56,832 nt of DNA from Minisyncoccota bacterium (GTDB lineage Bacteria; Patescibacteriota; Minisyncoccia; Moranbacterales; GCA-2747515): the NCBI GenBank assembly GCA_020629675.1, contig JAHDCW010000002.1, positions 1 to 56,832 on the forward strand, read 5' to 3'. The notes below the pieces were generated by a model. The model was given only the letters and a program-made list of their open reading frames with translations, searched no databases and was not told the DNA's origin. Position 1 is the first letter of the stretch. Each line of letters opens with the position of its first letter. The translations under genes were made by a program, and so were the position numbers. Below, piece after piece: positions 17,665 to 56,122 of the stretch.

Positions 17665-17700
17665 AATTATTTAGAGACTTGGTTTACTATTAGTATAAGT

Positions 17701-20504: not shown

Positions 20505-21491
20505 CTACTGTGTGAGAAACTCTCTGGCGAGTGTGAGGGCTTCTTTTTCATCTTGGATGCGGTGGATGTGAGCCCCTTGCTTTTCCCACCGCTTGATCCA
20601 CGTTAGCTGACGCTTGGCATAATGTTTGATGTCATAACGTAGTTTTTCATGCATTTCTGACTCTGTGATTTGACCGCGGAGGTAGCGTGTGCACCAGCGA
20701 TACTCGAGTCCAAAGTTCTCCAGGCGTGTCCATGACACACCCATGTCAAAATGCAGATTATGTACCTCTTGGAGCATGCCATCATCTAGGCGTCGGTCAA
20801 GCCTCCTCTCTATGCGATCATAAAGGACTTCTTGTGGTGGTGTAATGGCGAGGATGAGGTTGTTTTTATTGAGTGAGGTGTAGTCTGGTTTTGGTGGTTC
20901 TGGGACTTTGCCGTGCGCGGCGATGATTTCTAGTGAGCGGATTATCCTGATCTTGTTATTGATTTCATTACGCTTAATAAGGGATTCTGCGCGGTCAGGA
21001 TCTTTCTTCGTGAGAAGCGCGAAAAGGCCCTCCGTCGATTTTTTCTGCAGCTTTCTACGTAAGACATCATTAGGTGGTACGGAGGCGCCTACGGAGCCTT
21101 CTAGGAGTCCTTGAGCCCAAAAGAGTGTGCCTCCGGCGATGATCGGAAGCTTTTTTCTTTGTATTATTTCCTTTTTGATTCTATGTGCACGGGTAACAAA
21201 TTTATCAGCGCTAAAGATAGTGTTAGGGTGGTGCGTGTCGATGAGGTAGTGTGGTATCCCACTAGAAATATATGCATTGCGTGTAGCGCAGCCGCGTTTT
21301 TTGGAGCGTGTGATTTTGCCGGGCTCTTTGCCGCTGCCGATGTCCATGCCGCGATAAATCTGTCGACTGTCGCATGAGATGACCTCGCCGTTAAATGAAT
21401 GGGCTAGTGTTATAGCGAGATCAGATTTACCAGAGGCAGTAGGTCCGATCACATATATAGATTTTGGTTTTAAATTATCTATTGCGGACAT
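20505..21491 (-). CDS. miaA: tRNA dimethylallyltransferase
   Basis: P-loop IGPTASGKS, then SCDSRQIYRGMDIGSGK. Colinear with MiaA over its full length. Confidence 0.92.
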   Translation of the reverse strand: MSAIDNLKPKSIYVIGPTASGKSDLAITLAHSFNGEVISCDSRQIYRGMDIGSGKEPGKITRSKKRGCATRNAYISSGIPHYLIDTHHPNTIFSADKFVTRAHRIKKEIIQRKKLPIIAGGTLFWAQGLLEGSVGASVPPNDVLRRKLQKKSTEGLFALLTKKDPDRAESLIKRNEINNKIRIIRSLEIIAAHGKVPEPPKPDYTSLNKNNLILAITPPQEVLYDRIERRLDRRLDDGMLQEVHNLHFDMGVSWTRLENFGLEYRWCTRYLRGQITESEMHEKLRYDIKHYAKRQLTWIKRWEKQGAHIHRIQDEKEALTLAREFLTQ

Positions 21492-34161: not shown

Positions 34162-34770
34162 CTATTTTTTGAAAACGAGAAACTTATACCCAAGAAAGTT
34201 CCATACAATCACAGAGATCGAAGCGATAACAGCTGAGATTGTAGCCCAGATGCGTGGATCGATGGCGACGAACTGACCGATGATATTATTCATAAAGGAT
34301 GCAACAGAAACGTTGAGGACAAACCCAAGACCACTGATCGTCATAAACTTTGCGAGCTCGCGGTTTATGTCAGAATCTGCTCGGTCGCCAAAAGACCAAT
34401 ATTTGTTCCATGCATAGCTGTTAAGCGTCGCTACTACGAAGGCGATTGCTTTAAACATTCCAAATTCAAACCCTCGGGTCACACCTGTGATTACGATGAA
34501 GAGATTAAGTACGCCAAGGTCGATGGCAAAATTGGCTGCTCCGGTGGCGCAAAATTTCGACAACTGAAAAAAGAAAGGCTTGATATGATATAGAACATAA
34601 CCAACCAGGATGCCAGAAATTGCAACAGCAGAGAAAGTGAGTCCAGATAGGATGAGTGATATCTCAACAGATAAACTCGCCTTAGCGACAATGGGGACCA
34701 TTAAGCCAAAGATAAATCCATTGACGCCTGCAAAGAGCAGGTCATAAGGTGAGAGGATTGATTTTTGCAT
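34162..34770 (-). CDS. GtrA-family membrane protein (long form)
   Basis: GtrA-like core (AANFAIDLGVLNLF...NSYAWNKYWSF) with two extra N-terminal TM helices. Confidence 0.75.
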   Translation of the reverse strand: MQKSILSPYDLLFAGVNGFIFGLMVPIVAKASLSVEISLILSGLTFSAVAISGILVGYVLYHIKPFFFQLSKFCATGAANFAIDLGVLNLFIVITGVTRGFEFGMFKAIAFVVATLNSYAWNKYWSFGDRADSDINRELAKFMTISGLGFVLNVSVASFMNNIIGQFVAIDPRIWATISAVIASISVIVWNFLGYKFLVFKK

Positions 34771-34772
34771 GT

Positions 34773-35738
34773 TTAGAATTGCTGTGACTGTTGAGGGGTG
34801 TTCATTTCAGAACGGATTTCGCGCTCGATTTCGTCTATGTCTGGTACCCACTCACCGACGATGTCTTGTGATGGCTGGGGTTGCGGCTGCCTCTCTGTGT
34901 GTGTATCAATAGTTGCTGCTTCTTCGTGAATTGCTGATTCAGGATGGACTTGTGGTGAGATCTCGGCCTCAGGTTCTGCTGCTGTGTCTTGGTAGGGGTC
35001 AGCGATCGTATTTTCTTGTGGTTCTTCTTCTGGTGTCGGATCTACAGGTGGGGTGTCCTGATTGATCTCCTCAGTGATCTCTGACATTTGCATGTGATCG
35101 TCTTCTTTGCCGCCGAGGATGCCACTAGCGGTAACAGGCTTTACAGCTTCTTCAGTTGTAGTTGGTATTGACGCATATGCTGGCGGCTGCACTTCATGGT
35201 TGTGTTGCAGGACACTTTCGATCGACGCCCACGTTGCATCAGTGCCTTGTGAGGTTACGATAGCAACTTCATCTCCTGGCTCCGCTTTAAAATATGTCGC
35301 AGACGCAAGGAGGATGCGATAGTTTTTTCCATCAGCAACTACGATATAGTTTCCAGAAGGGTCTTGCGTGACGATGCCGATTTTGTTTTGTCGTGGGACA
35401 GGGCCAATTTGTTTGTAAATAAAGAAGCCCTCAGGGGAGATGGTGAGCTTGAGGAGGTCACCTTCAACGAGTTTTGATTTGCTGGCATAGTTAGCTGGGA
35501 TAGGGTACTGCTTTCCGTCAGTACCAATCATAACCTGGCCATCAAAAGTGCCTTGGACAACTTGACCTTCACTGTCATCAACTTTTTTCTTACGTCCTGC
35601 CTTTTTCTTGCCCTCAATCTGCAGGAGCATTGCTTTCGCGCCATGGATCGTACGTTCAGCGCTCGTGATCATGTCACGCAAAGACTGGATTTTTTGTGAG
35701 CGTTCCTCTTCGGAGAGGCTGTCAATGTTGTCTGTCAT
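34773..35738 (-). CDS. Hypothetical protein with coiled-coil N-terminus, duplicated beta-rich module and acidic Pro/Glu-rich tail
   Basis: 321 aa. Two similar ~50-aa modules (G..V.GT.DG.QY.I...KLVEGDLLKL and IGIVTQDPSGNYIVVADGKNYRIL...GDEVAIV) are followed by a low-complexity acidic tail. Confidence 0.65.
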   Translation of the reverse strand: MTDNIDSLSEEERSQKIQSLRDMITSAERTIHGAKAMLLQIEGKKKAGRKKKVDDSEGQVVQGTFDGQVMIGTDGKQYPIPANYASKSKLVEGDLLKLTISPEGFFIYKQIGPVPRQNKIGIVTQDPSGNYIVVADGKNYRILLASATYFKAEPGDEVAIVTSQGTDATWASIESVLQHNHEVQPPAYASIPTTTEEAVKPVTASGILGGKEDDHMQMSEITEEINQDTPPVDPTPEEEPQENTIADPYQDTAAEPEAEISPQVHPESAIHEEAATIDTHTERQPQPQPSQDIVGEWVPDIDEIEREIRSEMNTPQQSQQF

Positions 35739-42545: not shown

Positions 42546-42577
42546 AGAGGCGCTCATCATGCGCCTCTTTTATTTTT
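42546..42577 (+). terminator. Rho-independent terminator
   Basis: 8-bp GC-rich stem AGAGGCGC/GCGCCTCT, a 7-nt loop, then TTTTATTTTT. Confidence 0.75.
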
Positions 42578-42607: not shown

Positions 42608-42635
42608 TTGACAAAATGAGTAAAAATGTTATAAT
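42608..42635 (+). promoter_or_regulatory. Near-consensus sigma70 promoter (TTGACA-16-TGtTATAAT)
   Basis: Exact TTGACA (42608-42613), a 16-nt spacer with extended -10 TG, and exact TATAAT (42630-42635). A GGAGG SD lies 4 nt before the ATG at 42662. Confidence 0.7.
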
Positions 42636-42661: not shown

Positions 42662-43402
42662 ATGTCAAATTGTGATCTAACAATTGTTATACCGACATTT
42701 AATGAAGCGCACAACGTGCGAAATCTTTATCATGCGCTCAATTCCACTCTTGAAATAGAGGAATCTCTGGAGTATTTATTTGTAGATGACAGTACAGATG
42801 AGTTGACGCGGGAGATCATCGAAGAGCTGGCGCAGGAGGATCCGCGCGTACGCTTTATTTTTCGTGAGACCAACTCTGGACTGGCAACTGCAATTGCAGA
42901 GGGGATGGAGGCAGCAAGAGGTGACTATGTTTGTTCTATGGATGCAGATTTACAGCATCCTCCACAGTATATCAACGACCTCTACCGCGCTGTTCGCTTT
43001 GACGGTGCTGATATTGCGGTGGGTTCACGCTATACGAACAATGGATCAGCGCAAGGTCTGACGACTTTTTATCGTCGCATCTCATCACATATTTGCCGTT
43101 ATGCGGCTTACGCCTTACTGCCATCTACCCGTAAGACGACAGATCCGGGGAGTGGTTTTTATATGACGACCAAAAAGGCTGTAGATGCCAAAAAGTTGGG
43201 AAGAATGTTCGGATATAAGATATTGATTGAGATTTTAGTGCGTAATCCTGAGTTAAAGGTAGCTGATGTAGGGTATACCTTTGTGGGGCGTCAATATGAC
43301 ATAAGTAAATCGACATTTCGGCAGGGCTTGCTTTATTTTAAGCATATTGTATTACTAGCCTTGAGTCAGCGTCGGTTGCTTGCTAAAAAAACAAATTTGT
43401 AG
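42662..43402 (+). CDS. GT2 polyprenyl/dolichyl-phosphate hexosyltransferase (Dpm1-like)
   Basis: Motifs IVIPTFNEAHN, FVDDSTD and MDADLQHPP (DxD). At 246 aa it is soluble or peripheral, the Dpm1/PpmA-like size. Confidence 0.82.
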   Translation: MSNCDLTIVIPTFNEAHNVRNLYHALNSTLEIEESLEYLFVDDSTDELTREIIEELAQEDPRVRFIFRETNSGLATAIAEGMEAARGDYVCSMDADLQHPPQYINDLYRAVRFDGADIAVGSRYTNNGSAQGLTTFYRRISSHICRYAAYALLPSTRKTTDPGSGFYMTTKKAVDAKKLGRMFGYKILIEILVRNPELKVADVGYTFVGRQYDISKSTFRQGLLYFKHIVLLALSQRRLLAKKTNL

Positions 43403-43467: not shown

Positions 43468-45102
43468 ATGAAGAATCTTTCATTAATTAGCATCTTGTTT
43501 GTACCGCTGTTTTTCGTGGTCAACTTTGCAGATGCAACAGATGTCTCTGTGGGGGGACAATTTCAAAATACAAGTCCTGACGAAGGAACGTCAGTCGTGT
43601 ATGAGTTAGATGTGCAAAACATTGGTCCAGATGAGTCGCGCATTGACTTGGATTTTACCGTGGGTAATCACTTAACCTACGCATCACATATTATCAACGG
43701 TGGGTGTGCGTCAGGTGGCTCAGGGGCATCTACGACAGCGAATGGATTTTCAGTCTCGCAAATCAATGCAGGACTTGGATGTTCATTTAAGGTACTTGTG
43801 ACATTTAATATCTCTGCAAATTCATGCAGTGAAAATACAAATGTAAGCGTCAGTGCTAACTCAACGGTAGATATCGCGCAGTGCTCTCTTGAACTTAACT
43901 GCACTAATAAATCTGGCCTTACCTGTCTCGTAGATGAGCTTAATGAGTTTGGTCAATGTACAGGAACGTTTTGTACAGCGACGGCAACCTCAGCATATGA
44001 TAGTTGTTATTTGCCAACACAAGGAGCGTGTAATGGTGACGCCCAGTGTCTTGAAGATCTCCAGGAAACATGTTACGACGAAGCGCTCGCAGCTGCTCAC
44101 GTGTGCTTGCAAGGTGCGACAATTCCGACAACACCAAGCGTTACAACTGCCACTGATACTGCATCCCTAACCATCAATGATTGTATTCCAATTTCTGTGT
44201 GTGGCGATGGTTTGCCTGGAGCGGGTGAACAATGTGACGATGGTAACAATGTAGACGGTGATGGTTGTAGTGCTAGTTGCCAAATTGAAGTGCCAGTTTG
44301 TGGTGACGGTAAAATAAATCAATCATCTGAGCAGTGCGATGATGGAAATACGGTGAGTGGTGATAAATGTAGTGCCACCTGTGAGATCGAGCAAACAACG
44401 CCAGCTCCAATCTGTGGTGATGGTCAGGTAAACCAGTCATCTGAACAATGCGATGATGGTAATACAGTTAATGACGACAAATGTAGCAATACATGTCAGA
44501 ACGTTGTTGAGCCAACGCCAATGTGTGGCGACGGAACAGTTGATGCAGGAGAGACTTGTGATGATGGTAATACAGTAAATGGAGATGGTTGTAGTGCAAC
44601 ATGTGCAGTAGAGAATGATCAGGTTGATCCCTCTGGCGAACTAGAACAGGCAGAGACATGTTCAGTTGATGACTACGCTGATATTGAGGGTGAGGTGTGG
44701 ATCGATGAGAACAATAACGGTAAGCGAGACAAGGGTGAGCCTGGGATTGAAGACGTCACAGTTTATCTTACAGACCTTGATGGAAACGAGATTGACTCAG
44801 ATGAGACCAATGACGACGGTGAATTTGAATTTAAAAACTATGCACCAGGAGAATATTATGTTGACCTCCAGGAAAGTGATAAGGATCTTGATGGCCTTAA
44901 ATTAAAAGTTGAGGAGGATACAACGCTCAATGGAAAGGATCGTTTTGAGCTGGAGTGTGATGAAGATTACGACGATGCAACATTTGGGTATGTAAGCGAG
45001 GAAAAGAAAGTACACACAGAGCGTCCTCGAACACTTGCAAAAACCGGTGGACCACAGACTGCGTGGGAGCATGTCATGGCACTGATTGCTGCGATTTTCT
45101 AA
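43468..45102 (+). CDS. Secreted Cys-rich repeat surface protein (DUF11-like + 4x DUF4215-type Cys repeats + SdrD-B/CnaB-like domain, LAKTG tail)
   Basis: Signal peptide, four CGDG-x6-E-x-CDDGN-x4-D-x-CS-x-x-C repeats, GEVWIDENNNGKRDKGEPGIEDVTVYL...GEFEFKNYAPGEYYV, and a C-terminal LAKTGG followed by a short hydrophobic end. Confidence 0.8.
   Translation: MKNLSLISILFVPLFFVVNFADATDVSVGGQFQNTSPDEGTSVVYELDVQNIGPDESRIDLDFTVGNHLTYASHIINGGCASGGSGASTTANGFSVSQINAGLGCSFKVLVTFNISANSCSENTNVSVSANSTVDIAQCSLELNCTNKSGLTCLVDELNEFGQCTGTFCTATATSAYDSCYLPTQGACNGDAQCLEDLQETCYDEALAAAHVCLQGATIPTTPSVTTATDTASLTINDCIPISVCGDGLPGAGEQCDDGNNVDGDGCSASCQIEVPVCGDGKINQSSEQCDDGNTVSGDKCSATCEIEQTTPAPICGDGQVNQSSEQCDDGNTVNDDKCSNTCQNVVEPTPMCGDGTVDAGETCDDGNTVNGDGCSATCAVENDQVDPSGELEQAETCSVDDYADIEGEVWIDENNNGKRDKGEPGIEDVTVYLTDLDGNEIDSDETNDDGEFEFKNYAPGEYYVDLQESDKDLDGLKLKVEEDTTLNGKDRFELECDEDYDDATFGYVSEEKKVHTERPRTLAKTGGPQTAWEHVMALIAAIF
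44197..44615 (+). repeat. Four tandem ~100-120-nt coding repeats (Cys-rich repeat units)
   Basis: The strings GATGATGGTAATACAGT and TCATCTGA(G/A)CA(G/A)TGCGATGATGG recur. At the protein level there are 4 repeat units. Confidence 0.8.
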
Positions 45103-45140
45103 ATCCTCGACCGATAGACGTATACCGATAAACTGAAGGG

Positions 45141-45178
45141 AAAATCATCACAAGGGAATTGTTGATGATTTTTTCTTC
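45141..45178 (+). terminator. Rho-independent terminator
   Basis: 10-bp stem AAAATCATCA/TGATGATTTT, a 12-nt loop, and a T-rich tail. Confidence 0.55.
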
Positions 45179-45201: not shown

Positions 45202-47376
45202 ATGGTGAAAAAGACAGACAATAGAAGAGGTATTAGGATAATTGCAGTGTTGCTGTTGACTGGTGCGCTCACCGTAGCGGCATGTTGGTTTGGGTATGCG
45301 TACCTTACAGGCTCTAGTATTCCATCGGAGGATTTTACTGAGCAGGTTGTGGGAGCCAATCCAAGTGATGTGCTAGGTGAAAAAGATGATCCTGCAACAA
45401 CTGACAATACCCCCAAAGAAATAGATGTTATGGACGTATCAACACTTAAGCAGGAAACTGCTTTCACAGAAGGCGTTTACAGTGCACACGCAGGGCCTAT
45501 TGCTACCAACCAATGGTTTACCTCAAACTACTTTCGGCAAGGTTCGGAGAACTTCTTTGGATTTCCGCTAGCGTATAATGTCAGTGAAAACGCTTTTCGT
45601 ATTTCTTACCCGCGGATAAATGTACAGCCCCAAATTATTTTTGGTTCCTTTTCACAAGATGTAGCGCTTGTTTTTGATCGTCCAATAGTGTCTCGCGTAA
45701 AAGCGTACAGTGAGCTTTCTGTTACTTTGGAGCTCAGCAGCGTAGGGACAGAGGAATTGCTTGCAACGATTTATCTGACGCGTGGCTCACTTTATGTAAA
45801 TATATCTTTGACAGAAGCTGGAAGTGGAGTGCTGTGGGAGACACCGGGGACAATCGAACTAACAGGAACAGAGCAAAAGAAGTACCTTACACGCAACAAT
45901 GACACGAAGTTTGCGATTTATGCGCTCGATAATCTTATACTGACCGGCTCTGAAGATCGCAATCAGATTGCTGTTGGAAGTGATTTTGCTGTCGATGGAG
46001 AGCGCTTAGTGGTAGGTGTGTTACCTGAAGGTATGACGTGGGCACAACTTGATCGTTACGCTGCTCAATTTAATATGTCATCAGATTTTACGCTCACATC
46101 AACAGAGGCATCGCGTGTAGATTTTGACAAGGAGACGTACTGGGCTATCTTGCCACATCACCAACAGTCAATTCGTGGCGCTCTCTGCAACCAAGACATG
46201 CGTTTCCAGACAATTCGTGGGGCGATGATTGTCTGTGAGGGAAAGAGTTTTGATTTTATATCAGAGGCCACTGTCCCAGCGGAGCAGATTAACGTAGGCA
46301 CATTCACTGAGGAAGAAAAAGAGGTCCTGCGTCGCCTTGTGCGCGAGGAGACAGAGGCTTTTGCGGATTTTGCAGCTCCTGACACTTATTTTAGAGGAAA
46401 AGAGATCTTGCGTCTGGCGTATCTCTATGATCTGGCAGTTCAGCTAACGATGGATGCCACCTCGGACTCGCTCAAGAGCACTTTGCGACGTGAGTTTGCA
46501 AACTGGCGCACTAATACGATCGTTGCGCCGGATGGACTAAATGGGGAGCAGTACTTTGTTTACGATAATATTATTCGTGGTGTCGTGGGTCACAAGACGA
46601 GCTTTGGCTCTGAGCGCTTTAATGATCACCACTTTCATTATGGCTATTTTGTACATGCTGCAGCGATCATAGCGCGTCATGATGAGAGTTTTGTTGCAGA
46701 TAATGGGGATTTTGTGAATACGCTGGTGAGCGATTATGCAAATATCAACGCATCTAACCAAGACTTCTCATTGGTACGAAGCTTTGATTTTTATGAGGGG
46801 CATAGCTGGGCAGCTGGTGAGTCACTTTTTGGGGATGGAAATAATCAGGAGTCAACATCAGAAGCAATTCAGGCTTATTATGCGGCGTACCTTTGGGCAC
46901 GGACAATTGGTGCAGATGCATTAGCTAATAAAAACTTATGGCTCTTTAATCAAGAAACAGCAAGTGCGCGCATGTACTGGCTTTTGTCAGGTGAAGGTGC
47001 GCCAACGTACGAAGGTTATGAGCCAAGTGCTGTTTCGCTCCTATGGGGTGGTAAGGCTGAGTGGGCAACGTGGTTTAGTGGGGAGCCGGAGGCAAAGCTT
47101 GGGATTCAGCTGATTCCATTTACGCCGGGGAGTACATACCTCAACAAGATTAGTAATGAAAACATCAAACGTCATTTAGCGGAAACAGCTTTTCCAGAGC
47201 AGAAGCTATTCTATGACTTACTTCTCATGTACTACGCAGTAGCTGACCCACAGGATGCAGAGCGCATATTTAGAACCCAGGAAGCAGCAGGTTTATTAGA
47301 GCTGGATGGTGGAAACTCAAAAAGCTACCTATTTGCATGGATTCTTTTTCAAAAGTATGTAGAGAAAAATGATTAA
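45202..47376 (+). CDS. Membrane-anchored GH81 endo-beta-1,3-glucanase
   Basis: N-terminal TM. GH81 signature blocks FNDHHFHYGYFVHAAA, YEGHSWAAG and GNNQESTSEAIQAYY (E-x3-E catalytic pair). Confidence 0.82.
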   Translation: MVKKTDNRRGIRIIAVLLLTGALTVAACWFGYAYLTGSSIPSEDFTEQVVGANPSDVLGEKDDPATTDNTPKEIDVMDVSTLKQETAFTEGVYSAHAGPIATNQWFTSNYFRQGSENFFGFPLAYNVSENAFRISYPRINVQPQIIFGSFSQDVALVFDRPIVSRVKAYSELSVTLELSSVGTEELLATIYLTRGSLYVNISLTEAGSGVLWETPGTIELTGTEQKKYLTRNNDTKFAIYALDNLILTGSEDRNQIAVGSDFAVDGERLVVGVLPEGMTWAQLDRYAAQFNMSSDFTLTSTEASRVDFDKETYWAILPHHQQSIRGALCNQDMRFQTIRGAMIVCEGKSFDFISEATVPAEQINVGTFTEEEKEVLRRLVREETEAFADFAAPDTYFRGKEILRLAYLYDLAVQLTMDATSDSLKSTLRREFANWRTNTIVAPDGLNGEQYFVYDNIIRGVVGHKTSFGSERFNDHHFHYGYFVHAAAIIARHDESFVADNGDFVNTLVSDYANINASNQDFSLVRSFDFYEGHSWAAGESLFGDGNNQESTSEAIQAYYAAYLWARTIGADALANKNLWLFNQETASARMYWLLSGEGAPTYEGYEPSAVSLLWGGKAEWATWFSGEPEAKLGIQLIPFTPGSTYLNKISNENIKRHLAETAFPEQKLFYDLLLMYYAVADPQDAERIFRTQEAAGLLELDGGNSKSYLFAWILFQKYVEKND

Positions 47377-50062
47377 GCGAAGGTTGCAAAATAAGGGGGA
47401 GCGTGCAGAGATGGCTGGCATTAAGAGACCGCGACGTGCTGGTGTTTTTCGTGCTGTGCATGAACGTGGTGATGTGCTACCTAAGCACAACCAGGCGCTC
47501 AAAAAGAGAGCGATGCCAACGCAAGCGCAAAAGTCTAGCGGGTCGGGTGATCATTTGATCGATGTGATGGATGCAAGCTACATGCAGGAAATCTACCAAG
47601 AAGTAAAGGGAGAGGCACGTCGTCAAGCTGTGGAACAGCAAGTGAGTCACATGCAGCAGACTGCAGGAAGACCTTCTGACACAGGGGGGCAGCAGACTGG
47701 GGTGCAGCAGAGAAATTCGACTGTGCAACCGACGCCTATTGCAAATCCATACAAGCGCACACACGCGGCAAATCCTGTACGGTCATTTGCATTTGATACG
47801 GTTGCAGCACCGGGGCGTGCGCAGAGTCACGCATCGTCAGCACCTTCGCCGCTCGAACGTGCTCAAGCCTTTTTTGTCGGTGATGCTGCAGCTGATCTAC
47901 ATAAAAATGAGGGTGAGACGGAGTATGACTTTTCTGACAAGGATAATCGTGAAGTGCGCCAACCGTTTGTGATACGGATGATTGCAGAAATGATGTTTCT
48001 ATTCTTGATTTATACAACGGGTTGGTTTTTGATTGGCTATTATCTCGAAGGAGAATTTCTCTCAACAAACTACCAAGACTGGATCTACCACGCATGGCGC
48101 ATAGATACGCTACAAGAACATCAGATGATTACATCTTGGGATCACCAATGGACCAGCGGAATTAACCATTGGCGCTCCTATCAGTACATTCAGCATGTCC
48201 TCGTCCTAGGCGTTGTACAGCTCACAGGATTATCGATCACCAAAGCGATGATCTTGTTGACTGTCGTGATTTATATCGGTATTCGTTTTCTGATATATGG
48301 TGTGCTGCGTAGCTTTGGCGTAGGTGCCTTGGCAAGTTTTATAGCGGTACTTTTTTCCTTTACATACGTCCAGCAGTGGATCGCAATTAGTGATTTTTCT
48401 ATTTTTATCGCTTTCATCATCGTACCGTTTTACATACTGCTATGGAAAAACATCTACGAGCGCCATGCGCTACGTAAAGATCTAGATGGGAATGCGCTTG
48501 TGGTGGAGCATAGGAAAAGGCGTCGTGCAGAGTATTTCTTAGCACTGCTGACAGGTGCGACGTGGATTTTGCATCCGATTATTGCAAACGTCTTTGCTGG
48601 GATTTTCTTTTATACGATTGGATTTCGTTCGCTTAAGATCTCACTTACATATGCACTAAGTATTTTGGCGGTGTATATCATAGGGGCGCTCGCTTTCTTT
48701 TTGCCATATTTTTCGGCGGGATACCATTTTGCTAATCCTGTGTTTACGACAACCGGATTTGTGACGGATACGATTGCTGGAGAGTATTTTGGCCTTAGCT
48801 TCTTTTTTTGGGGGTTTACAGGGTTCGCGATTGTGGTGAGTATGCTGATGCCGAGTGTGGCACCTGCGTGGGCTAGACGGCTCCTAGGTTACTCCATTTT
48901 GTATTTCATTTTGATTTACTTTGCACAAAATGGTTATGTGCCTAAAATTATTACACAGCTTCAGATTTCTCGTGTCATACCAGTGTTGGCGCTTTTGATT
49001 ATCTTTGCGTTTGCTGGCATCCTAGATGGATTTCTCAAAAGCTTCAAGATGGCGCGACCGTTTATTGTGATTCTTGCGATATTTGCAGCTATTTCAATTA
49101 TTGAGTCAGTGAAAATTGGGACAGCTTTTACGAGTCAACCACGAACATCTCTGGATGACCCTGTGTCTCTCTATTTTAATGGTAAGGAGGACCCGAAGGG
49201 GAGTATCTATGTGCGTGATGTCTCATCTGCGAGTTACTTTTCTGAGGGGGATGTACGCTTTATAAATTCATACAATGAGCACTTGCTACCAAATCCTTTA
49301 TCTGTACGTTTTGGATTCTTTATGCGATCTGAAATTGCATATACGGGTGTGTCACGCACACATGAAAAGCTTATTCGGGATTATTCTACGGTTATGGGGC
49401 TTGAATATATTGTTTTGCCGCAATCGTCACCGCTCATTCGTTCATTGACCCAAAAAGATGAAGGGCAAGAGCGGGCGGATTTTGAATTTGTCGAAACTTT
49501 AAGTTCGTTTAATGGGGTATACACGATCATTCGTCGCACTGCGGAAATACATAATGCATATCTGATCAATCAAGATGATCGTGTATTGACGTGGGATCAG
49601 ACATTGGAAAATCCTACAATTGAAGCTAATTCGTATCAGCAGTGGGATCGCAAGGTGAGTATTCTGGCAGAAAAAATGCGTAATGGTGAGATGATACCGC
49701 TGGATACATCATTTACGCGTCAGGATCAGATCGCCATCGATCTGACTGATCAAGATCTTAGCGGAAAGGCTCTTTTTGTGGCACAAAGCTATGATCCATA
49801 CTGGTCTATAGTAGGTCGTCGTGATGTTGTTAAACCTTCAGAAATTAGAATGATTCATGTAGAGCCCGCTGCGCTTTCAGATGAATTGGTAACTCGTCAA
49901 GATGGGCGTGTACGTATTGTGCTTGAGAATAACTGGCCATGGTGGCACTGGCCGCTCCAGTTCTTTGCTCTCGGTGCGATTGGACTCATTTTTGTGGCGG
50001 GACTCTTCAGCTTGCGAGGGCAGCGTGTTGGAAGTATAAGTCGTAAACGTAAGCAGCGATAG
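47369..50062 (+). CDS. Large polytopic membrane protein, YfhO-like GT-C architecture (putative glycosyltransferase)
   Basis: ~195-aa basic/Gln-rich N-terminal region, ~12 TM helices, an early loop YQDWIYHAWRID, a ~330-aa extracytoplasmic domain and a final TM. It overlaps the GH81 gene by 8 nt. Confidence 0.75.
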   Translation: MIKRRLQNKGERAEMAGIKRPRRAGVFRAVHERGDVLPKHNQALKKRAMPTQAQKSSGSGDHLIDVMDASYMQEIYQEVKGEARRQAVEQQVSHMQQTAGRPSDTGGQQTGVQQRNSTVQPTPIANPYKRTHAANPVRSFAFDTVAAPGRAQSHASSAPSPLERAQAFFVGDAAADLHKNEGETEYDFSDKDNREVRQPFVIRMIAEMMFLFLIYTTGWFLIGYYLEGEFLSTNYQDWIYHAWRIDTLQEHQMITSWDHQWTSGINHWRSYQYIQHVLVLGVVQLTGLSITKAMILLTVVIYIGIRFLIYGVLRSFGVGALASFIAVLFSFTYVQQWIAISDFSIFIAFIIVPFYILLWKNIYERHALRKDLDGNALVVEHRKRRRAEYFLALLTGATWILHPIIANVFAGIFFYTIGFRSLKISLTYALSILAVYIIGALAFFLPYFSAGYHFANPVFTTTGFVTDTIAGEYFGLSFFFWGFTGFAIVVSMLMPSVAPAWARRLLGYSILYFILIYFAQNGYVPKIITQLQISRVIPVLALLIIFAFAGILDGFLKSFKMARPFIVILAIFAAISIIESVKIGTAFTSQPRTSLDDPVSLYFNGKEDPKGSIYVRDVSSASYFSEGDVRFINSYNEHLLPNPLSVRFGFFMRSEIAYTGVSRTHEKLIRDYSTVMGLEYIVLPQSSPLIRSLTQKDEGQERADFEFVETLSSFNGVYTIIRRTAEIHNAYLINQDDRVLTWDQTLENPTIEANSYQQWDRKVSILAEKMRNGEMIPLDTSFTRQDQIAIDLTDQDLSGKALFVAQSYDPYWSIVGRRDVVKPSEIRMIHVEPAALSDELVTRQDGRVRIVLENNWPWWHWPLQFFALGAIGLIFVAGLFSLRGQRVGSISRKRKQR

Positions 50063-50063
50063 T

Positions 50064-51548
50064 ATGAAAGCAGGAAAAATTTTCGCAAAAAAGATACCAG
50101 CTGTTACATTTCTCTTCTTGGCAGCATCTCCACTCGTTGTGATTTGGTACGCAGCGTATATTTTTAATGTTAACAATGCTGACAATCTCTTTTTGTATAG
50201 CATTCAGATTATCGCAGACTCAATTGCGATGATGGTGCTCTTGGGTCTGTGGTTGACTGTATTGATTGACACTCTGATAGAGCGTCATCACCGTACTTTT
50301 GAGCGTGTAAATTTCTCGCTTCTTAGTGATGATAATGTTCCTACAGTGGATGTATTTATCACTGTATATGGTGAGCCACTTAGCGTGATCGAAAAAACAG
50401 CACGTGCAGCGCGGGACATGCGTGTACTGCATAATACTTATGTATTGGATGATGGAAACAGTTTTGAGGTGCGCTATTTTTGTGAGCAAAACGGCATCAA
50501 GTATATCGCTCGAGAAAAAAATGATCATGCGAAGGCCGGTAATGTAAACAATGCACTTTCAGAGACAGATGCAGAATTTTTTGCCATCATAGATGCGGAT
50601 CACGTACCAGAGCCAGAGTTTCTTGAGGTGCTTTTGCCCTACATGGAAGACAAAAATTTGGCTATGGTGCAGTCACCACAACATTACCGCAACATCGAAA
50701 ACTTTATTGCCTCCGGAACAGCGCAGGCACAGGAGGTATTTTACCGCTACGTATGTCCTGCTAAAAATATCTCAAACTCTGCTTTTTCTGTGGGAACAAA
50801 TGTGCTGTTTCGTCGTAGTGCGATTGACCAGATTGGCGGTATAGCACTTAACAACTCTGAGGATATTTGGACATCGTTCTTGCTTCATAAAAATGGTTGG
50901 CGTACGATCTTTGTTAACCAGGTATTGGCAATTGGTGTGGCGCCAGATACGATTATTTCTTTTTTCAAGCAACAGCGTCGCTGGGCTAAGGGTGGTCTTG
51001 ATATACTTATCAATGAAAGTCCGATGCGCAATGAGGGTCTTGAGCTTGATCAGCGCATCCAATATTTTATCTCAAGTACATTTTTCTTGGTAGGTATTCC
51101 GATTCTTGTTTATATTGTGATGCCGATTATCTATTTGCTTTTTGATGAGAAGCCGCTTCTTATTACTAATGGAACGGTCTGGCTGATCCATTACCTGCCG
51201 TATTTCTTTTTGTATTTTGCGATTACGTTCTTGTTGCTCCGACAGAAACTTCGTATCTCTACGATGGCGACAGCGCTCGCTAACTTTTACCCGTACCTCC
51301 TTGGTCTTTTCTCAGTGATTTTTGATACAGAGCAAGAGTGGGTAGCGACGACATCAAAGAAGAATAGTGTTGATCCGATTATGAAGTGGATTTGGCCGCA
51401 TGTGTTCTTGTTGGTATTGTCAATATTGAGTTTGATTGTGGGGTGGTACAATCCAACAGAATTCTGGGCATCGTTTTTTAATTCTATGTGGGTGGGTCTT
51501 AATATCTTTTTGTTGAGTACGTTCTTGACCCGTGCACGTTATAAGTAG
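50064..51548 (+). CDS. Processive GT2 beta-glycan synthase (BcsA/CrdS/BgsA-like), no PilZ domain
   Basis: Two N-terminal TM helices. D,D,D,QxxRW signature: VLDDGN, IIDADHVP, SEDIWTS (TED-like) and QQRRWAKG. Also QSPQHY and 4-5 C-terminal TM helices. It starts 1 nt after the upstream stop. Confidence 0.82.
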   Translation: MKAGKIFAKKIPAVTFLFLAASPLVVIWYAAYIFNVNNADNLFLYSIQIIADSIAMMVLLGLWLTVLIDTLIERHHRTFERVNFSLLSDDNVPTVDVFITVYGEPLSVIEKTARAARDMRVLHNTYVLDDGNSFEVRYFCEQNGIKYIAREKNDHAKAGNVNNALSETDAEFFAIIDADHVPEPEFLEVLLPYMEDKNLAMVQSPQHYRNIENFIASGTAQAQEVFYRYVCPAKNISNSAFSVGTNVLFRRSAIDQIGGIALNNSEDIWTSFLLHKNGWRTIFVNQVLAIGVAPDTIISFFKQQRRWAKGGLDILINESPMRNEGLELDQRIQYFISSTFFLVGIPILVYIVMPIIYLLFDEKPLLITNGTVWLIHYLPYFFLYFAITFLLLRQKLRISTMATALANFYPYLLGLFSVIFDTEQEWVATTSKKNSVDPIMKWIWPHVFLLVLSILSLIVGWYNPTEFWASFFNSMWVGLNIFLLSTFLTRARYK

Positions 51549-51566
51549 ATCTAGTAATATAAGTAT

Positions 51567-52370
51567 ATGAGTCAAAAAAATTTTTCATTTCGTGAGTGGC
51601 TATTTAACACTTTTATGGTGGTGTTTGTTTTTCTGATTGCGCTTATGATTTCATCACAGGCATTGACGCGTAAGGTGAACTCTTTTCAGAGCATCACGAG
51701 CCCAGTGTTTTTTGAGGTTGACAAAAAAGACCTCGTTATCAATGCGCAGGTAGAGGGGCGTGTCAAAACGATCAATGTAACCTCGGGACAAAGTGTAAAA
51801 GCGGGGGAGTTGATCGTAGAACTCGACTCAACAGCGTTTGAGAGGCGTGTGAGCCTACTCGAAGAGGTGGCTGATCAAAACCTCTCAGCACGGACGGAGT
51901 TGAGTGTTCTTCGAGAGGATGCAGATAGCTTTAAAATTTATGCGCCACAGGATGGTGTGATTGATGATATTAATATCTCAGAAGGGTCCTATGTGAACCG
52001 TGAGGCGCGCGTGCTGACGATGTTCTCTGACACGGATACAAGGCTTACGAGTTTTGTGACACCGGATCAGTATAGTGAGATCCAGAATAGCGGCAGTGTA
52101 AATGTTTACAGTGATCGTCTGGAGCAGACCTTTAAGGCAAAACTTGATGGTGTGCGACAGGCAACACGTGGTGCAGGCAATCAAGGCTTTAATCAAAATA
52201 CGGGTGATAGTTTTTTTGAGCTTATCTTTCGCTTTGAAAATGCTGAAGATGGAGCGATCTTTATCGAGAAAGAATCACTTCAGTTGATCAACCCAGCCGA
52301 AGAAGAGTCTATTACGCGACCAAGTGATCGTCTTGCGCGAATTTGGAACGCACTAATCCTTGGACGCTAA
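51567..52370 (+). CDS. HlyD-type membrane-fusion/adaptor protein (single TM + barrel-sandwich hybrid)
   Basis: N-terminal TM. Lipoyl-like halves INAQVEGRVKTINVTSGQSVKAGELIVELD and IYAPQDGVIDDINISEGSYVNREARVLTMF are joined by a very short alpha-hairpin. Confidence 0.7.
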   Translation: MSQKNFSFREWLFNTFMVVFVFLIALMISSQALTRKVNSFQSITSPVFFEVDKKDLVINAQVEGRVKTINVTSGQSVKAGELIVELDSTAFERRVSLLEEVADQNLSARTELSVLREDADSFKIYAPQDGVIDDINISEGSYVNREARVLTMFSDTDTRLTSFVTPDQYSEIQNSGSVNVYSDRLEQTFKAKLDGVRQATRGAGNQGFNQNTGDSFFELIFRFENAEDGAIFIEKESLQLINPAEEESITRPSDRLARIWNALILGR

Positions 52371-52380
52371 CACATAGCTT

Positions 52381-52827
52381 ATGCATCAATTTAGAGATTT
52401 CGTACATCGTATCTATGACGTCATCTTTCCGTTTGCGCTGATGCAGCGTTATAAGCGGGTCTTGATGTATCTTTTTTTTGGATCGATGGCGGCTATTGTA
52501 GATGTTGGTGTGTATATAATCCTATTTAATTTCTTCGGTTTTGCAGCGCTTTATGCAAATTCTGTATCTCAGGCGCTTGCGATCCTTTGTGGTTTTTTCC
52601 TAAATGGGTTTATTACCTTTAAGGTAAGTGATAAATATAAACGGCGACTCTTGCTTTTTATTCTCGTAAGTCTAACAGGTTACCTGGTGACTTCTGTGAT
52701 TCTATATCTCTTTCATGATATGCTAAGATTCGATGGTAATCTCGTGAAGATACTATCGCTGCCGCTTATTTTTGTGCTACAGTATACATTAAATTCATTG
52801 ATTACATTTCGTTCATCATCTCGTTAA
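52381..52827 (+). CDS. GtrA-family membrane protein
   Basis: 148 aa with 4 TM helices and GtrA-like motifs (FGSMAAIVDVGVYIILF; NGFITFKV; NSLITF). Confidence 0.8.
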   Translation: MHQFRDFVHRIYDVIFPFALMQRYKRVLMYLFFGSMAAIVDVGVYIILFNFFGFAALYANSVSQALAILCGFFLNGFITFKVSDKYKRRLLLFILVSLTGYLVTSVILYLFHDMLRFDGNLVKILSLPLIFVLQYTLNSLITFRSSSR

Positions 52828-52836
52828 TTATTTCTT

Positions 52837-54159
52837 ATGTCGCAAGATACTAAAAAAATTGCTGTCATCGGTGCTGGTTTTACAGGACTGACTGCAGCAT
52901 ACCGACTGGCTCTCCAGGGTTACCACGTAACTGTTCTTGAAAAAGAAGCTGTTTTAGGAGGTTTGGTAGCTGGTTTTGAGATGCATAATCAACCGATTGA
53001 AAAGGTGTATCACTTTCTTTATATGACAGACGCAGATGCATTGGGGTTGCTTGAGGACCTTGGTGTGCGGGATAAGCTAACTTTTTATGATAGCTCTGTC
53101 TCAACGTACTATGATGGGACGCTCTTCCCGTTTATGACACCGAAAGATCTATTAACCTTTACACCTCTCTCATTACTCGACAGAATCCGCACAGGTGCAG
53201 TAGCGTTTTATCTTCAGCGCTGCAAAAATTGGAAACCGCTGACAAAGATCACAGCTTATGACTGGATGAAGAAATATGCAGGCAAGCACGCTACACGCAT
53301 CATCTGGGAGCCCCTCCTCAAGGGTAAATTTGGTAAGTTTTACGACAAGGTTACAATGTCATGGTTGTGGTCGCGTATTCATGTGCGCGCAAACTCTAAG
53401 GAGTCTGGTTCGACAGGGGAGAAGCTTGGATATATCGAGGGTAGCTTTGCCATTGTCATTGAGGCGCTGGAGCGCGCGATCACAGAGCGTGGCGGTCGTA
53501 TCATCACGTCTTGTAATATCGAGGCGATTGATGGTGCGGAGGGTGAGAAGTCAAAAATTACTTATAATGGCACACACGAAGAATTTGATGCGATTTTGGC
53601 GACAGTCCCAACGCATGTTTTTGATACATTGACAGCGCATAACCCGCTGGTAAAAAAGGCTCCACAGCGTGATCATATTGATTATATTGGTGCGATCGTT
53701 GGTATTTTTAGTAGCACGCAGGAGATCTCAGAATATTACTGGCACAACATTAACGATGACAGTATTCCATTTTTGGTATTCTTGTCTGAGACAGCCCTGA
53801 CTGGTACTGATTTATTTGAAGGTCGTCATGTTTACTATATAGGAGTGTATGTTGAACATGAGCATCCCTATTTTGATATGCCGGATAAGGCAATTTTGGA
53901 TGAGTGGTTTGGTGGGCTTAAAAAAATGTTTCCAGACTTTGATGTGGAGCAGATCATGGAAAAACATCTTTTCAAGTTCCGCAACGCGCAACATATAGTT
54001 GATATCGGTTATGAAGATAAGATGCCACCATATAAAAGTGTTTTACCTGGTGTTTATCTCGCAAACTTTTCACAGATTTTCCCTGATGATCGCGGCATCA
54101 ACTATGCTGTACAAGAAGGTAATAAGCTTGCAGCTATGATTGATAGGGATCTTGCGTAA
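52837..54159 (+). CDS. FAD/NAD(P)-binding oxidoreductase (amine-oxidase / phytoene-desaturase / PPOX-like fold)
   Basis: The N-terminal dinucleotide-binding motif KIAVIGAGFTGLTAAYRLALQGYHVTVLEKEAVLGGL and a C-terminal YLANFSQIFPDDRGINYAV are typical of this superfamily. Confidence 0.78.
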   Translation: MSQDTKKIAVIGAGFTGLTAAYRLALQGYHVTVLEKEAVLGGLVAGFEMHNQPIEKVYHFLYMTDADALGLLEDLGVRDKLTFYDSSVSTYYDGTLFPFMTPKDLLTFTPLSLLDRIRTGAVAFYLQRCKNWKPLTKITAYDWMKKYAGKHATRIIWEPLLKGKFGKFYDKVTMSWLWSRIHVRANSKESGSTGEKLGYIEGSFAIVIEALERAITERGGRIITSCNIEAIDGAEGEKSKITYNGTHEEFDAILATVPTHVFDTLTAHNPLVKKAPQRDHIDYIGAIVGIFSSTQEISEYYWHNINDDSIPFLVFLSETALTGTDLFEGRHVYYIGVYVEHEHPYFDMPDKAILDEWFGGLKKMFPDFDVEQIMEKHLFKFRNAQHIVDIGYEDKMPPYKSVLPGVYLANFSQIFPDDRGINYAVQEGNKLAAMIDRDLA

Positions 54160-54179: not shown

Positions 54180-56066
54180 TTACTCCTTTGCATAAGGATT
54201 ATCGCCTGCGATGTTAGATTCTTTGGCACTGTAGATATGGAGTGCACTGCGCTCACTTTGTGAGCGCTTTATTGTGTGGAGAGGAATGTTAACTTTTGTG
54301 TAAAGCTGCTCAAAATTATAGACGCCGATGCGTGGAGCTGCTCTACGTTTGAGCTCACTCTTACTTTCTCGGATAACTTGATGAGCTCGATCAGGTGTTG
54401 TGACAAAATACTGAAAGACAAGCTTGTCTTCTAGGATGCGATCGTGTTTAACCGTTGTCGTGCAGCTACCTACAAAAGCACGGCATACGCCTGATTTGTC
54501 GGACCAAATACTTAGATTCTCAGCATAGGGAAGACTGTTAAGATACGCGGCTGCATGATAGCTACCATCACCCATGTTTTTGTAGTCAAAGAGGTGGTTG
54601 GTAGGTAAGAATGAGTTGTGATAACTAAGATAAAATGGTGTACTGGTATAAAGACTCGCAATGAGGGTAATGGTAAGACCGCCATAAAGAAATCTCTTGG
54701 CTACTACTTGTGATGGGAGTAGTAGTCGCTGCCCTAGAATAAAGGTGCCACATGCGCATACAAAAAATACGAGAGGGAATAAGCCTATCTGGTAACGCAG
54801 CGTGGGCGCGACACCGCCTATTGCAGAGCCAAGGTAGTACACTACGATAAATAGAAGTGATCCTGTGATAAATAGTTGCTGCTTCTTGGTTGCGATCAAT
54901 GGTGTTACAAGGCATGTCACGAGAAAAAGTGCGAGCATGAGCGGGTGCAAGCCAAAGGTAATGTTATAAAAACCTGAGAGAAATGTTGTCAAAAAATCAG
55001 TGTTGCTCAGTGCACTTTTCGGTGATTGAAGAGCGAGTTGAAAGTTGTGGAGCGGGTTATTGAGGATGGTACTCAAAAGCACATAAAGAGTAGCCATAAA
55101 AACTGTGATTGCGCTAAAAATCGTAATCACCCTGTGGTACGGACGCAGGTAAAAGAGTATCGTGCTAAATAAAGGTCTTCTACTTAGAAAGGTGTCAGTC
55201 ACGAAAAAAAACATGAGTCCGACGTAAATGCCCCAGATAGCTATAAAAGCTTCTGAGAAGAGCGTTCCCCTAAGGATATCGATTGGTCTAATCCATGTAC
55301 TCGGTAACATGAGGATATATACTGCTAATGCAATAAAGGTGATACTCATATAAACGATGATATGTCGCTTGAGTTGACTTTGGATGAGGGTGATATCTTT
55401 CTTACGGTCATATATCACAATTAAGGCGCTAAGTAACGGCATCATTACGAAAATAAGATTTGCAATATATTTTGTCAGAAGTCCTAGCCCTAGGATGGTA
55501 CCGGCATAAATTACAGTGGTACGCGACGGAAACAAGAGTGCGCGCCATATAAGAAAAAAACTTAATGGTAAGAGAATCCATAAAAGCGCATCAGGATTAA
55601 TAATACGTGCGATGCCGAGTAGGTGCGGGGATAATGCAATCATGAGAACTGATGCGAGTGCAATTTCTTGGTTAGTGAGCCGGCGGACGACAAAAAAGAG
55701 GAGTAAAAGCAAAATCGCACCAGCAGCTAAGATGGGTAGACGCATAAGTGCCGTGAGATGTTCATGTTCCTCAGGTGTGATCGACTCTTGGATCGTGCTA
55801 GGGTAAGCGTGAGCGAGGCGAGAGGGTGTGCCGAGGATGGCAATTGTGATACCTGGCTTGTCATTAATGCGTGTGCCAAGGAGATCGCCACTTAAGAAAG
55901 AGGCGCTGTATGATTCGATACGATCAAAAATCCATAAAGGCTCATCAACCATTGCTTGTTTGCCGATATCTCGTGCACCGATTACAAAAAAACAAAAACA
56001 CAGCAAAAAAGCAAGTGCTGTATAAAAAGATGAATAATGCTCCTGTGAGCGAGAAAAAATTTGCAT
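54180..56066 (-). CDS. GT-C glycosyltransferase, ArnT/PMT (GT39/GT83)-like
   Basis: First periplasmic loop MVDEPLWIFDR...NDKPG (DE motif), more than 12 TM helices and a ~130-aa C-terminal soluble domain. The ATG at 56066 is preferred. Confidence 0.75.
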   Translation of the reverse strand: MQIFSRSQEHYSSFYTALAFLLCFCFFVIGARDIGKQAMVDEPLWIFDRIESYSASFLSGDLLGTRINDKPGITIAILGTPSRLAHAYPSTIQESITPEEHEHLTALMRLPILAAGAILLLLLFFVVRRLTNQEIALASVLMIALSPHLLGIARIINPDALLWILLPLSFFLIWRALLFPSRTTVIYAGTILGLGLLTKYIANLIFVMMPLLSALIVIYDRKKDITLIQSQLKRHIIVYMSITFIALAVYILMLPSTWIRPIDILRGTLFSEAFIAIWGIYVGLMFFFVTDTFLSRRPLFSTILFYLRPYHRVITIFSAITVFMATLYVLLSTILNNPLHNFQLALQSPKSALSNTDFLTTFLSGFYNITFGLHPLMLALFLVTCLVTPLIATKKQQLFITGSLLFIVVYYLGSAIGGVAPTLRYQIGLFPLVFFVCACGTFILGQRLLLPSQVVAKRFLYGGLTITLIASLYTSTPFYLSYHNSFLPTNHLFDYKNMGDGSYHAAAYLNSLPYAENLSIWSDKSGVCRAFVGSCTTTVKHDRILEDKLVFQYFVTTPDRAHQVIRESKSELKRRAAPRIGVYNFEQLYTKVNIPLHTIKRSQSERSALHIYSAKESNIAGDNPYAKE

Positions 56067-56122
56067 GAAAGTAACATTTACTATATCTCTATTGTACCTG
56101 AAAAACATGTTAAAATAAAAGC

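Follow-up and report, generated by a model that had tools for sequence, protein, structure and literature searches.

A putative beta-(1,3)-type glucan synthase locus with a GT-C-fold partner and a GH81 glucanase in Moranbacterales

What does a cluster that joins a beta-1,3-glucanase to a processive glycan synthase and to a membrane glycosyltransferase without family annotation make, and which of its genes belong together? The question is raised by six genes on contig JAHDCW010000002.1 of a Minisyncoccota bacterium (assembly GCA_020629675.1, order Moranbacterales), within a stretch of 56,832 nt that was analysed as a whole and is called the window below. We read the region, with moderate confidence, as a synthase-dependent machine for a beta-(1,3)-type glucan, in which a glycosyltransferase of the GT-C fold is a partner of the synthase and a glucanase of glycoside hydrolase family 81 (GH81) trims the product. 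That the presumed glucan synthase, a member of glycosyltransferase family 2 (GT2), is coupled to an adaptor, the GT-C protein and a beta-1,3-glucanase of matching specificity is a well-supported interpretation. A first-pass annotation made from the sequence had already proposed that six genes together make, export and trim a glucan; that proposal stands as an interpretation, with the changes that the constant unit has four genes and that the likely donor-making GT2 is encoded elsewhere in the window.

A conserved four-gene core

The list of open reading frames (ORFs) is identical to the one that had been described, with six ORFs on the + strand between 45202 and 54159 and successive junctions of -8, +1, 18, 10 and 9 nt:

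45202–47376, + strand: GH81 enzyme, predicted endo-beta-1,3-glucanase, 724 residues, anchored in the membrane at its N-terminus; candidate hydrolase for trimming or remodelling
47369–50062, + strand: GT-C-fold membrane glycosyltransferase (predicted), 897 residues; N-terminal extension of ~196 residues, ~10 transmembrane helices, an outer domain of ~270 residues and a C-terminal transmembrane helix
50064–51548, + strand: BcsA-like processive GT2, putative glucan synthase, 494 residues, without PilZ or another C-terminal regulatory domain
51567–52370, + strand: short HlyD-type membrane-fusion adaptor, 267 residues; N-terminal anchor, lipoyl domain, beta-barrel and almost no alpha-hairpin
52381–52827, + strand: GtrA-family small membrane protein, 148 residues; proposed membrane partner of a donor-synthesis cassette
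52837–54159, + strand: FAD-dependent oxidoreductase of the PRK07233 type, 440 residues, with a protoporphyrinogen-oxidase/CrtI-like fold

Related loci were gathered by exact-protein look-ups and a genome scan and were compared by tblastn with the window proteins. Those that carry a label come mostly from metagenome-assembled genomes (MAGs) of Candidatus Moranbacteria or Moraniibacteriota. The GT-C protein, the GT2 and the adaptor occur together in 15 independent loci, and in 14 of them the GH81 gene adjoins the three; in L011, the remaining one, the cluster is cut by the contig end. Many relatives keep the gene order, and four orders are found across the related loci. The colinear arrangement GH81–GT-C–GT2–adaptor is present in L001/L002, L003, L005, L006, L007, L008, L009, L010 and L012, and GT-C–GT2–adaptor–GH81 in L004 and L021. 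The latter order recurs on a 1.2-Mb contig (L020) with the GH81 gene on the opposite strand, and L019 has GH81–GT2–adaptor–GT-C, where identity drops to 36% (GT2) and 23% (GT-C protein).

Based on this synteny, the conserved unit consists of the genes for GH81, GT-C, GT2 and adaptor. The GtrA and FAD oxidoreductase genes adjoin such a unit only in the window, in L001/L002 (upstream), in L005 (downstream) and in L025; they form a separable and widespread pair that is used with other GT2/GT-C systems. The six genes as one invariant unit were therefore rejected, the last two being absent from most related loci, although the four-gene part of the earlier proposal is conserved.

Some features of individual relatives are recorded here as side observations. 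L009 and L011 lie in MAGs labelled Bdellovibrionales and Gammaproteobacteria, the other labelled loci of the same genome scan being from Moranbacteria, and mis-binning or mislabelling may be involved. In L004 the module is flanked (6204–9953 and 16204–20910) by genes for a 733-residue GT2, a 515-residue protein with a weak CBM_5_12 match and a 1568-residue multi-domain GT2/GT4 protein, an indication that the core may lie within larger glycan islands. A DUF3048 protein is encoded next to or near the module in the divergent loci L019 (4918–6084) and L020 (19128–19518).

Synthase, glucanase and adaptor

The 494-residue GT2 belongs to Cellulose_synt (PF03552). Its residues 20–487 align with residues 72–568 of BcsA (PDB entry 4hg6, E = 2e-47; entry 7lby, E = 1e-52), a stretch that begins with the second N-terminal helix and ends with the channel region, and transmembrane segments flank the glycosyltransferase domain. 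The earlier call of a processive GT2 is upheld by this alignment, which covers both the catalytic domain and the membrane channel and does not place the protein in a non-processive clade. The expected motifs are VLDDGN at 127–132 (D129/D130), IDADH at 176–180 (D177xD179), SED at 265–267 and QQRRW at 303–307, and WVATTSK at 426–432 is the equivalent of the gating loop. Among 118 homologs the elements DDG, KxGN, DxD, QxPQ, F[C/S]VGTN, SEDxW, QQxRW and WxAT are invariant or nearly so. The protein has SED in place of the TED of BcsA and FCVGTN in place of FFCGS, and it ends directly after the last transmembrane helix, without a PilZ domain and without a C-terminal domain of the BgsA type. It scores 255 bits against the CelA model TIGR03030 (equivalog cut-off 699) and 208 against PRK11498 (992), and neither an equivalog score, a PilZ domain nor a BcsB partner was found, with no BcsB-like gene in the locus. 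Because of the CelA score, we treat the enzyme as a BcsA-like synthase and not as BcsA itself.

The first gene encodes a GH81 enzyme with both Pfam domains above the gathering score: the C-terminal (alpha/alpha)6 domain PF17652 (E = 5e-64; 217.2 bits against a cut-off of 25.6) and the N-terminal beta-sandwich domain PF03639 (E = 8e-9; 35.5 bits against 25.6). The best sequence matches in the PDB are 6fop (E = 1e-55) and BhGH81, entry 5t49 (E = 5e-48). The motifs NDHHFHYGY (474–482), GHSWAAG (533–539) and NNQESTSEA (547–555) contain the catalytic Asp475, Glu550 and Glu554, which align with those of solved GH81 enzymes and are kept in 10 of 10 orthologs; every motif that had been quoted for this enzyme and for the GT2 is present in the translations. 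The protein has a single N-terminal hydrophobic helix (transmembrane segment 13–31), and is thus predicted to be a membrane-anchored ectoenzyme, not a freely secreted one.

To our knowledge, every characterised GH81 enzyme listed in CAZy is an endo-beta-1,3-glucanase. A GH81 partner would thus imply a polymer with beta-1,3 runs, i.e., curdlan- or laminarin-like, by the logic that holds for cellulose operons, in which a dedicated endoglucanase matches the product, BcsZ (GH8) in the case of Bcs (PMC8892547).

The adaptor carries three HlyD-type signatures above their Pfam cut-offs (PF13533, PF13437 and PF16576) behind an N-terminal transmembrane segment (12–30), as had been claimed, and its best PDB match is MacA (entry 4dk0, E = 2e-5). 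Like the GH81 enzyme, it is placed outside the membrane by its N-terminal anchor. Only ~30 residues (88–120) lie between its two lipoyl halves, compared with ~160–200 in BgsB, and by this sequence comparison it does not have the long alpha-hairpin that docks to TolC. No TolC gene is present within the window. Such a hairpin-less adaptor probably fits a cell that has no outer membrane.

The GT-C protein and a separable putative donor cassette

The 897-residue protein had been called a YfhO-like GT-C, and the two halves of that name fared differently. No Pfam or NCBIfam model matches it at E<=0.01, YfhO (PF09586) included, and the profile of its family returned only spurious matches to G-protein-coupled receptors among PDB sequences (E >= 0.009). 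An index of 5.8 billion proteins holds 14 homologs, all of 660–705 residues and all without the first ~196 residues of the window protein. Using an alignment of these homologs, we obtained an AlphaFold2 model with a mean local confidence (pLDDT) of 80.5 and a predicted TM-score (pTM) of 0.82. In a Foldseek search of the PDB with this model the top 14 matches are all GT-C enzymes (AftA, DPY19, ALG12, PglB, AftD, AglB and ALG9) at a probability of 1.00, with E values of 2e-5 to 7e-3 and moderate TM-scores of 0.31–0.42; the next fold class appears from E = 0.04. Judged by its predicted structure, the protein is a GT-C by fold. Membership in the YfhO family was rejected, as PF09586 is not matched at its gathering score.

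A profile search of 1.84 billion representatives delimits a GT-C family of just 145 members with a sharp edge. The most remote of them reach PTPS_related and DUF6541, two GT-C families of Pfam, with YfhO appearing only below threshold or faintly. Conservation peaks in the first outer loop, which is the site of the catalytic acid in GT-C enzymes: Asp237, in the motif YQDWIYH just after the first transmembrane helix, is invariant in the 14 close homologs and present in 96% of 103 representatives, among which Trp238, Arg244, Trp257, Gly264, His402 and Arg535 are also conserved. The outer domain has a weak match over 86 columns to the soluble domain of AftD, which gives no clue to the acceptor.

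The N-terminal extension (47369–47956, ~196 residues) is rich in Gln, Ala, Arg and Ser, has no family match and is absent from nearly all homologs. It is probably translated, because the reading frame stays open for ~590 nt and overlaps the GH81 stop codon by 8 nt.

Two further genes of the window bear on the sugar donor that such an enzyme would use:

42662–43402, + strand: small soluble GT2, candidate polyprenyl-phosphate-sugar synthase (GtrB/DPM1/PpgS-like), 246 residues; proposed donor synthase for the GT-C protein
54180–56108, - strand: PMT_2/ArnT-like GT-C, 642 residues, convergent; possible second consumer of polyprenyl-phosphate-sugar

The small GT2 matches PF00535 (E = 2e-33) and, below cut-off, the NCBIfam models PgfS, ArnC-like and PpgS-like; it resembles polyprenyl-phosphate glycosyltransferases (PgfS, ArnC, PpgS and DPM-type) most, and no transmembrane segment was found in it. 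A 945-residue protein of L025 (P0018, at 5086–7923), which belongs to the close relatives of the GT-C protein, is 41% identical to this enzyme over residues 6–238 and 35% identical to the GT-C protein over residues 284–942; by these alignments it joins, as a natural fusion, a small GT2 of the polyprenyl-phosphate type to the GT-C family seen in the window. Its GT2 domain occupies the position of the N-terminal extension of the window protein. The whole of L025 reads GtrA–FAD oxidoreductase–[GT2::GT-C]–synthase–adaptor–GH81, with junctions of 10, 5, -8, 10 and 10 nt. In L005 an ortholog of the small GT2 (44% identity) follows the GtrA and FAD oxidoreductase genes, and distant members of the GT-C family outside synthase loci adjoin ordinary small GT2 genes.

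The GtrA assignment holds (PF04138, E = 9e-21); by its name, this Pfam family is a membrane domain common to GtrA and DPM synthases. The FAD oxidoreductase is likewise confirmed, with 440 bits against the NCBIfam cut-off of 252 for PRK07233 and 1sez as its best PDB match (E = 9e-10). Its homologs number 1755 at E<=1e-60; among the 120 best, ~14 contain GtrA as a fusion partner in single proteins of 580–616 residues. In L022, L023 and L024 the GtrA–FAD oxidoreductase pair or fusion is followed by a double GT2 of ~690–705 residues and by two tandem PMT_2 GT-C + GH8 proteins of ~880–1000 residues. Since the pair or fusion precedes PMT_2 GT-C proteins elsewhere, it is a general cassette that accompanies GT-C enzymes; in the window a PMT_2 protein is also encoded next to it, the convergent 642-residue ORF (PF13231, E = 3e-11; PF02366, E = 6e-9; 11 hydrophobic segments), which bounds the cluster downstream as had been described.

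The genes for GtrA (52381–52827), the small GT2 (42662–43402) and the GT-C protein (47369–50062) are thus encoded together in the window, and all three are contiguous in L025. The GT-C protein may use a polyprenyl-phosphate-linked sugar as donor, as suggested by the fusion in P0018, by the adjacent GtrA gene and by the small GT2 genes beside distant family members. We infer that the small GT2 and GtrA would form a split lipid-sugar synthase feeding it. The three-component glycosylation route that the first-pass annotation had recognised is accordingly retained for GtrA and the GT-C protein and corrected for its GtrB/CsbB-like member, which would be the 246-residue GT2 and not the 494-residue one; since it is the homologue of the small GT2 that is fused to the GT-C protein in P0018, the donor synthase is placed outside 45202–54159.

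The same evidence bears on the idea that the six genes are one indivisible operon, in which the 494-residue GT2 is a GtrB/CsbB-like lipid-sugar synthase, GtrA and the GT-C protein complete a surface-glycosylation route and no free glucan is made. The single strand and tight junctions of the six genes agree with it, as does the presence of both GtrA and a GT-C, but we consider it very improbable: the 494-residue GT2 has a full channel of the BcsA type, QQxRW and a gating-loop equivalent, which GtrB-like enzymes lack, most related loci have neither GtrA nor the FAD oxidoreductase, and a separate GtrB-like GT2 is available that is the one joined to the GT-C protein in P0018.

Around the cluster, the window contains the following transcription signals and one intervening gene:

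42608–42635, + strand: promoter-like site 5' of the small GT2 gene, TTGACA-16-TATAAT (12/12) with an extended TG; a consensus match
43468–45102, + strand: gene for a secreted Cys-rich repeat protein, 544 residues, between the small GT2 and GH81 genes
45135–45178, + strand: A+T-rich hairpin followed by a T-rich tract, intrinsic-terminator-like, 5' of the GH81 gene and ~24 nt before its ATG
54249–54267, + strand: G+C-rich terminator-like hairpin with a T tract, 90 nt 3' of the FAD oxidoreductase stop codon and within the 3' end of the convergent gene

The promoter-like site is separated from the upstream housekeeping genes by a further terminator-like hairpin (42546–42568) and may drive the whole + strand array. 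The terminator that had been noted upstream of the cluster at 45141–45178 is a real hairpin with slightly wider bounds (-20.7 kcal/mol, z = -3.9; 0 of 200 shuffled sequences fold equally well); because it is A+T-rich, it was missed by the G+C-rich consensus scan. That scan performs at chance level in the window for promoters (29 found, 30.5 expected) and for terminators (11 found, 11.8 expected). The hairpin leaves no space for a recognisable promoter 5' of the GH81 gene. A scan of the window with Rfam returned no RNA family and no riboswitch, c-di-GMP riboswitches included.

The core and the cassette might also be two unrelated systems that lie side by side by chance, one a glucan synthase module and the other a cassette for the general glycosylation of proteins or of the wall (small GT2, GtrA, FAD oxidoreductase and PMT_2 GT-C), with the GT-C protein of the module taking its donor from elsewhere or using another donor. 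The wide distribution of the GtrA–FAD oxidoreductase pair (1755 homologs) and its service to other GT2/PMT_2–GH8 systems are as this idea predicts, most synthase loci are without the pair, and in the window the hairpin and an unrelated gene stand between the small GT2 and GH81. Coincidence is nevertheless improbable in our judgement, given that four independent arrangements (the window, L001/L002, L005 and L025) bring the cassette next to the synthase module and that in L025 a small GT2 is covalently fused to the same GT-C family.

Product, proposed pathway and implications

What the synthase makes can be approached through its partners. An alternative to a beta-(1,3)-type product is that the locus is of a Bcs or Bgs type and makes plain cellulose (beta-1,4) or an alternating mixed-linkage glucan, with the GH81 enzyme kept for another purpose (e.g., for environmental or host beta-1,3-glucan) and the GT-C protein acting as a structural, BcsB-like partner with no catalysis on the polymer. 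Homologs of the GT2 are labelled 'cellulose synthase (UDP-forming)' by JGI, BcsA and BgsA are its best family and structure matches, and the outer domain of the GT-C protein followed by a C-terminal transmembrane helix is reminiscent of BcsB. Even so, we think this alternative unlikely, for the following reasons: (i) Across 14 of 15 loci and four rearrangements, the glucanase kept beside the synthase is a GH81 enzyme and not a cellulase of GH8, GH5 or GH9, and the characterised GH81 enzymes that we know of from CAZy all cleave beta-1,3-glucan internally. (ii) The enzyme is membrane-anchored rather than freely secreted. (iii) Conservation of the GT-C protein is strongest in the catalytic first loop. 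(iv) Its fusion to a donor-making GT2 in P0018 argues for an active transferase. (v) The acceptor-site motifs of the synthase are unlike those of BcsA (SED for TED and FCVGTN for FFCGS).

Several points weigh against the beta-(1,3)-glucan machine that we prefer. That this cell has no outer membrane is an assumption made from what is generally known of bacteria of the Candidate Phyla Radiation (CPR). Most related loci have no adjacent donor cassette, and the case for a donor link depends largely on a single fusion and four instances of adjacency. For the GH81 gene, the consensus scan places no promoter between the hairpin at 45135–45178 and the start codon, and this strong hairpin between the upstream genes and GH81 makes co-transcription with the small GT2 uncertain. 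A model of the GT-C outer domain (AlphaFold2, pLDDT 79) has no significant match in the PDB, the best E being 0.09. The identity of the synthase to Sinorhizobium BgsA, its best plasmid-borne relative (30–33%), is no better than to BcsA (28–34%); these ranges are inseparable, and deriving the linkage type from similarity was rejected as an approach. Finally, cellulose, mixed-linkage glucan and curdlan are all products of BcsA-like enzymes, sequence and structure cannot distinguish between them, and models of such enzymes are compatible with either product, so that the product is unreadable from sequence, which also favours the cellulose or mixed-linkage alternative (PMC10374906).

Among described systems, the closest in its synthase and adaptor is the mixed-linkage beta-glucan synthase of Sinorhizobium meliloti, for which BgsA, BgsB and TolC have been proposed as a tripartite exporter (PMC13438883, PMC5567048) and in which BgsA has a C-terminal domain that binds c-di-GMP (PMC5567048). 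Both systems encode a PilZ-less BcsA-like GT2 beside a HlyD-type protein; cyanobacterial cellulose systems are a further precedent for an adaptor, as cited in PMC13438883. The differences are several: the window GT2 has 494 residues and no c-di-GMP-binding domain, whereas BgsA has 664 and the alignment (30% identity) stops at its residue 523; the adaptor has 267 residues and is nearly hairpin-less, whereas BgsB has 410 (25% identity over 81 residues); no TolC is expected for the window system; and Bgs is without a GT-C protein and a glucanase. With Bcs the window shares a processive GT2 with its own channel and a dedicated endoglucanase in the gene cluster, GH81 taking the place of the GH8 enzyme BcsZ, but it lacks BcsB, BcsC and PilZ and adds the GT-C protein and the adaptor.

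The crdASC locus of Agrobacterium makes curdlan, a linear beta-1,3-glucan, with a PilZ-less BcsA-like GT2 and the unrelated accessory proteins CrdA and CrdC; as far as we know, it has no GH81, GT-C or HlyD adaptor. Its beta-1,3-glucan is the polymer that the window GH81 would imply. Three-component glycosylation is represented by GtrA/GtrB/GtrC in O-antigen phages, CsbB–GtcA–YfhO in Firmicutes and PpgS–Rv3632 in mycobacteria. The likeness lies in a small GT2 predicted to make a polyprenyl-phosphate-sugar, a GtrA-family protein and an outer-face GT-C, a wiring supported by the P0018 fusion; the window differs in that its GT-C protein stands within a processive synthase module and below the YfhO Pfam threshold, and in that an FAD oxidoreductase is tied to GtrA, often as a fusion. 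The tip glucan system CslA–GlxA–CslZ of Streptomyces, with a copper radical oxidase and a GH6 glucanase but no known GT-C, adaptor or GtrA, is similar in that the cellulose-synthase-like GT2 of a monoderm bacterium shares its locus with genes for an oxidase and an endoglucanase that act on the same surface glucan.

The pairings of synthase with adaptor (Bgs and cyanobacterial Xcs) and of synthase with matching glycanase (Bcs), as well as the GtrA/GT2/GT-C route, are therefore already known. In the literature searched we found no description of a BcsA-like processive synthase constantly linked to a GT-C protein and a GH81 enzyme, and nothing relevant on such systems in Moranbacteria or Patescibacteria, in agreement with the initial impression that the gene combination had not been described.

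In the pathway that we propose, the 494-residue GT2 would use a nucleotide sugar, presumably UDP-glucose, to polymerise a beta-glucan, threading it through its own membrane channel, as homology to BcsA and BgsA suggests. The short adaptor, held by one helix, could form a collar or conduit around the exit site through the wall zone. On the outer face, the GT-C protein may use a polyprenyl-phosphate-sugar to add side residues to the emerging glucan or to link the glucan to an acceptor, the donor being made, and possibly flipped, by the small GT2 and GtrA. The FAD oxidoreductase might modify the lipid-linked sugar or its lipid; that it oxidises either is a guess. The membrane-anchored GH81 enzyme would act on the polymer at beta-1,3 linkages, cutting it for trimming, release or remodelling.

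A more far-reaching version, which we put forward tentatively and with more doubt than confidence, is a hitherto unrecognised hybrid pathway by which Moranbacteria would form a beta-1,3-glucan layer with a structural or adhesive role, and in which a processive, channel-forming synthase is obligatorily coupled to an outer-face GT-C that is fed by the split GT2/GtrA/FAD oxidoreductase cassette and that branches or covalently anchors the emerging polymer, the GH81 enzyme being a remodelling or cell-separation hydrolase. If true, this pathway would unite the 'synthase-dependent' and 'polyprenol-dependent' routes, usually regarded as alternatives.

Elsewhere the window is ordinary chromosome, with genes for DnaE, a class A penicillin-binding protein, tRNA synthetases, RNase H and RecJ, together with many glycosyltransferase genes. 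Between housekeeping genes, at 2092–5165, 9035–10156 and 16489–17664, lie those for one GT2, three GT4 and an LPG_synthase_TM protein, and the density of envelope-glycan genes is high for a 57-kb stretch. A second GtrA-family gene (202 residues) adjoins a 321-residue ORF without a Pfam match at 34162–35738 (- strand), and at 10372–13111 (- strand) two adjoining ORFs of 309 and 601 residues have no Pfam match at E<=1e-5. In the 544-residue protein encoded at 43468–45102, a hydrophobic segment at the N-terminus is accompanied by four Cys-rich DUF4215/TIGR02232 repeats and an SdrD B-like domain (SdrD_B). The protein ends in LAKTG and a hydrophobic tail resembling a sortase signal, which would fit a Gram-positive-type envelope; this LPXTG-like signal is consistent with an adaptor that lacks the hairpin and with a cell without an outer membrane. 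The protein is absent from the related loci and probably lies outside the system.

Because a whole lineage keeps this multi-gene machine despite the tiny genomes of CPR/Patescibacteria, the polymer is probably central to the envelope or to attaching the cells to hosts or surfaces. The locus predicts that bacteria other than the few known curdlan producers make a beta-1,3-type glucan, and it places a GT-C family without annotation in a functional context for the first time. It also brings to notice a very widespread unit of GtrA and FAD oxidoreductase, and suggests that transferases using lipid-linked sugars can work in concert with processive synthases.

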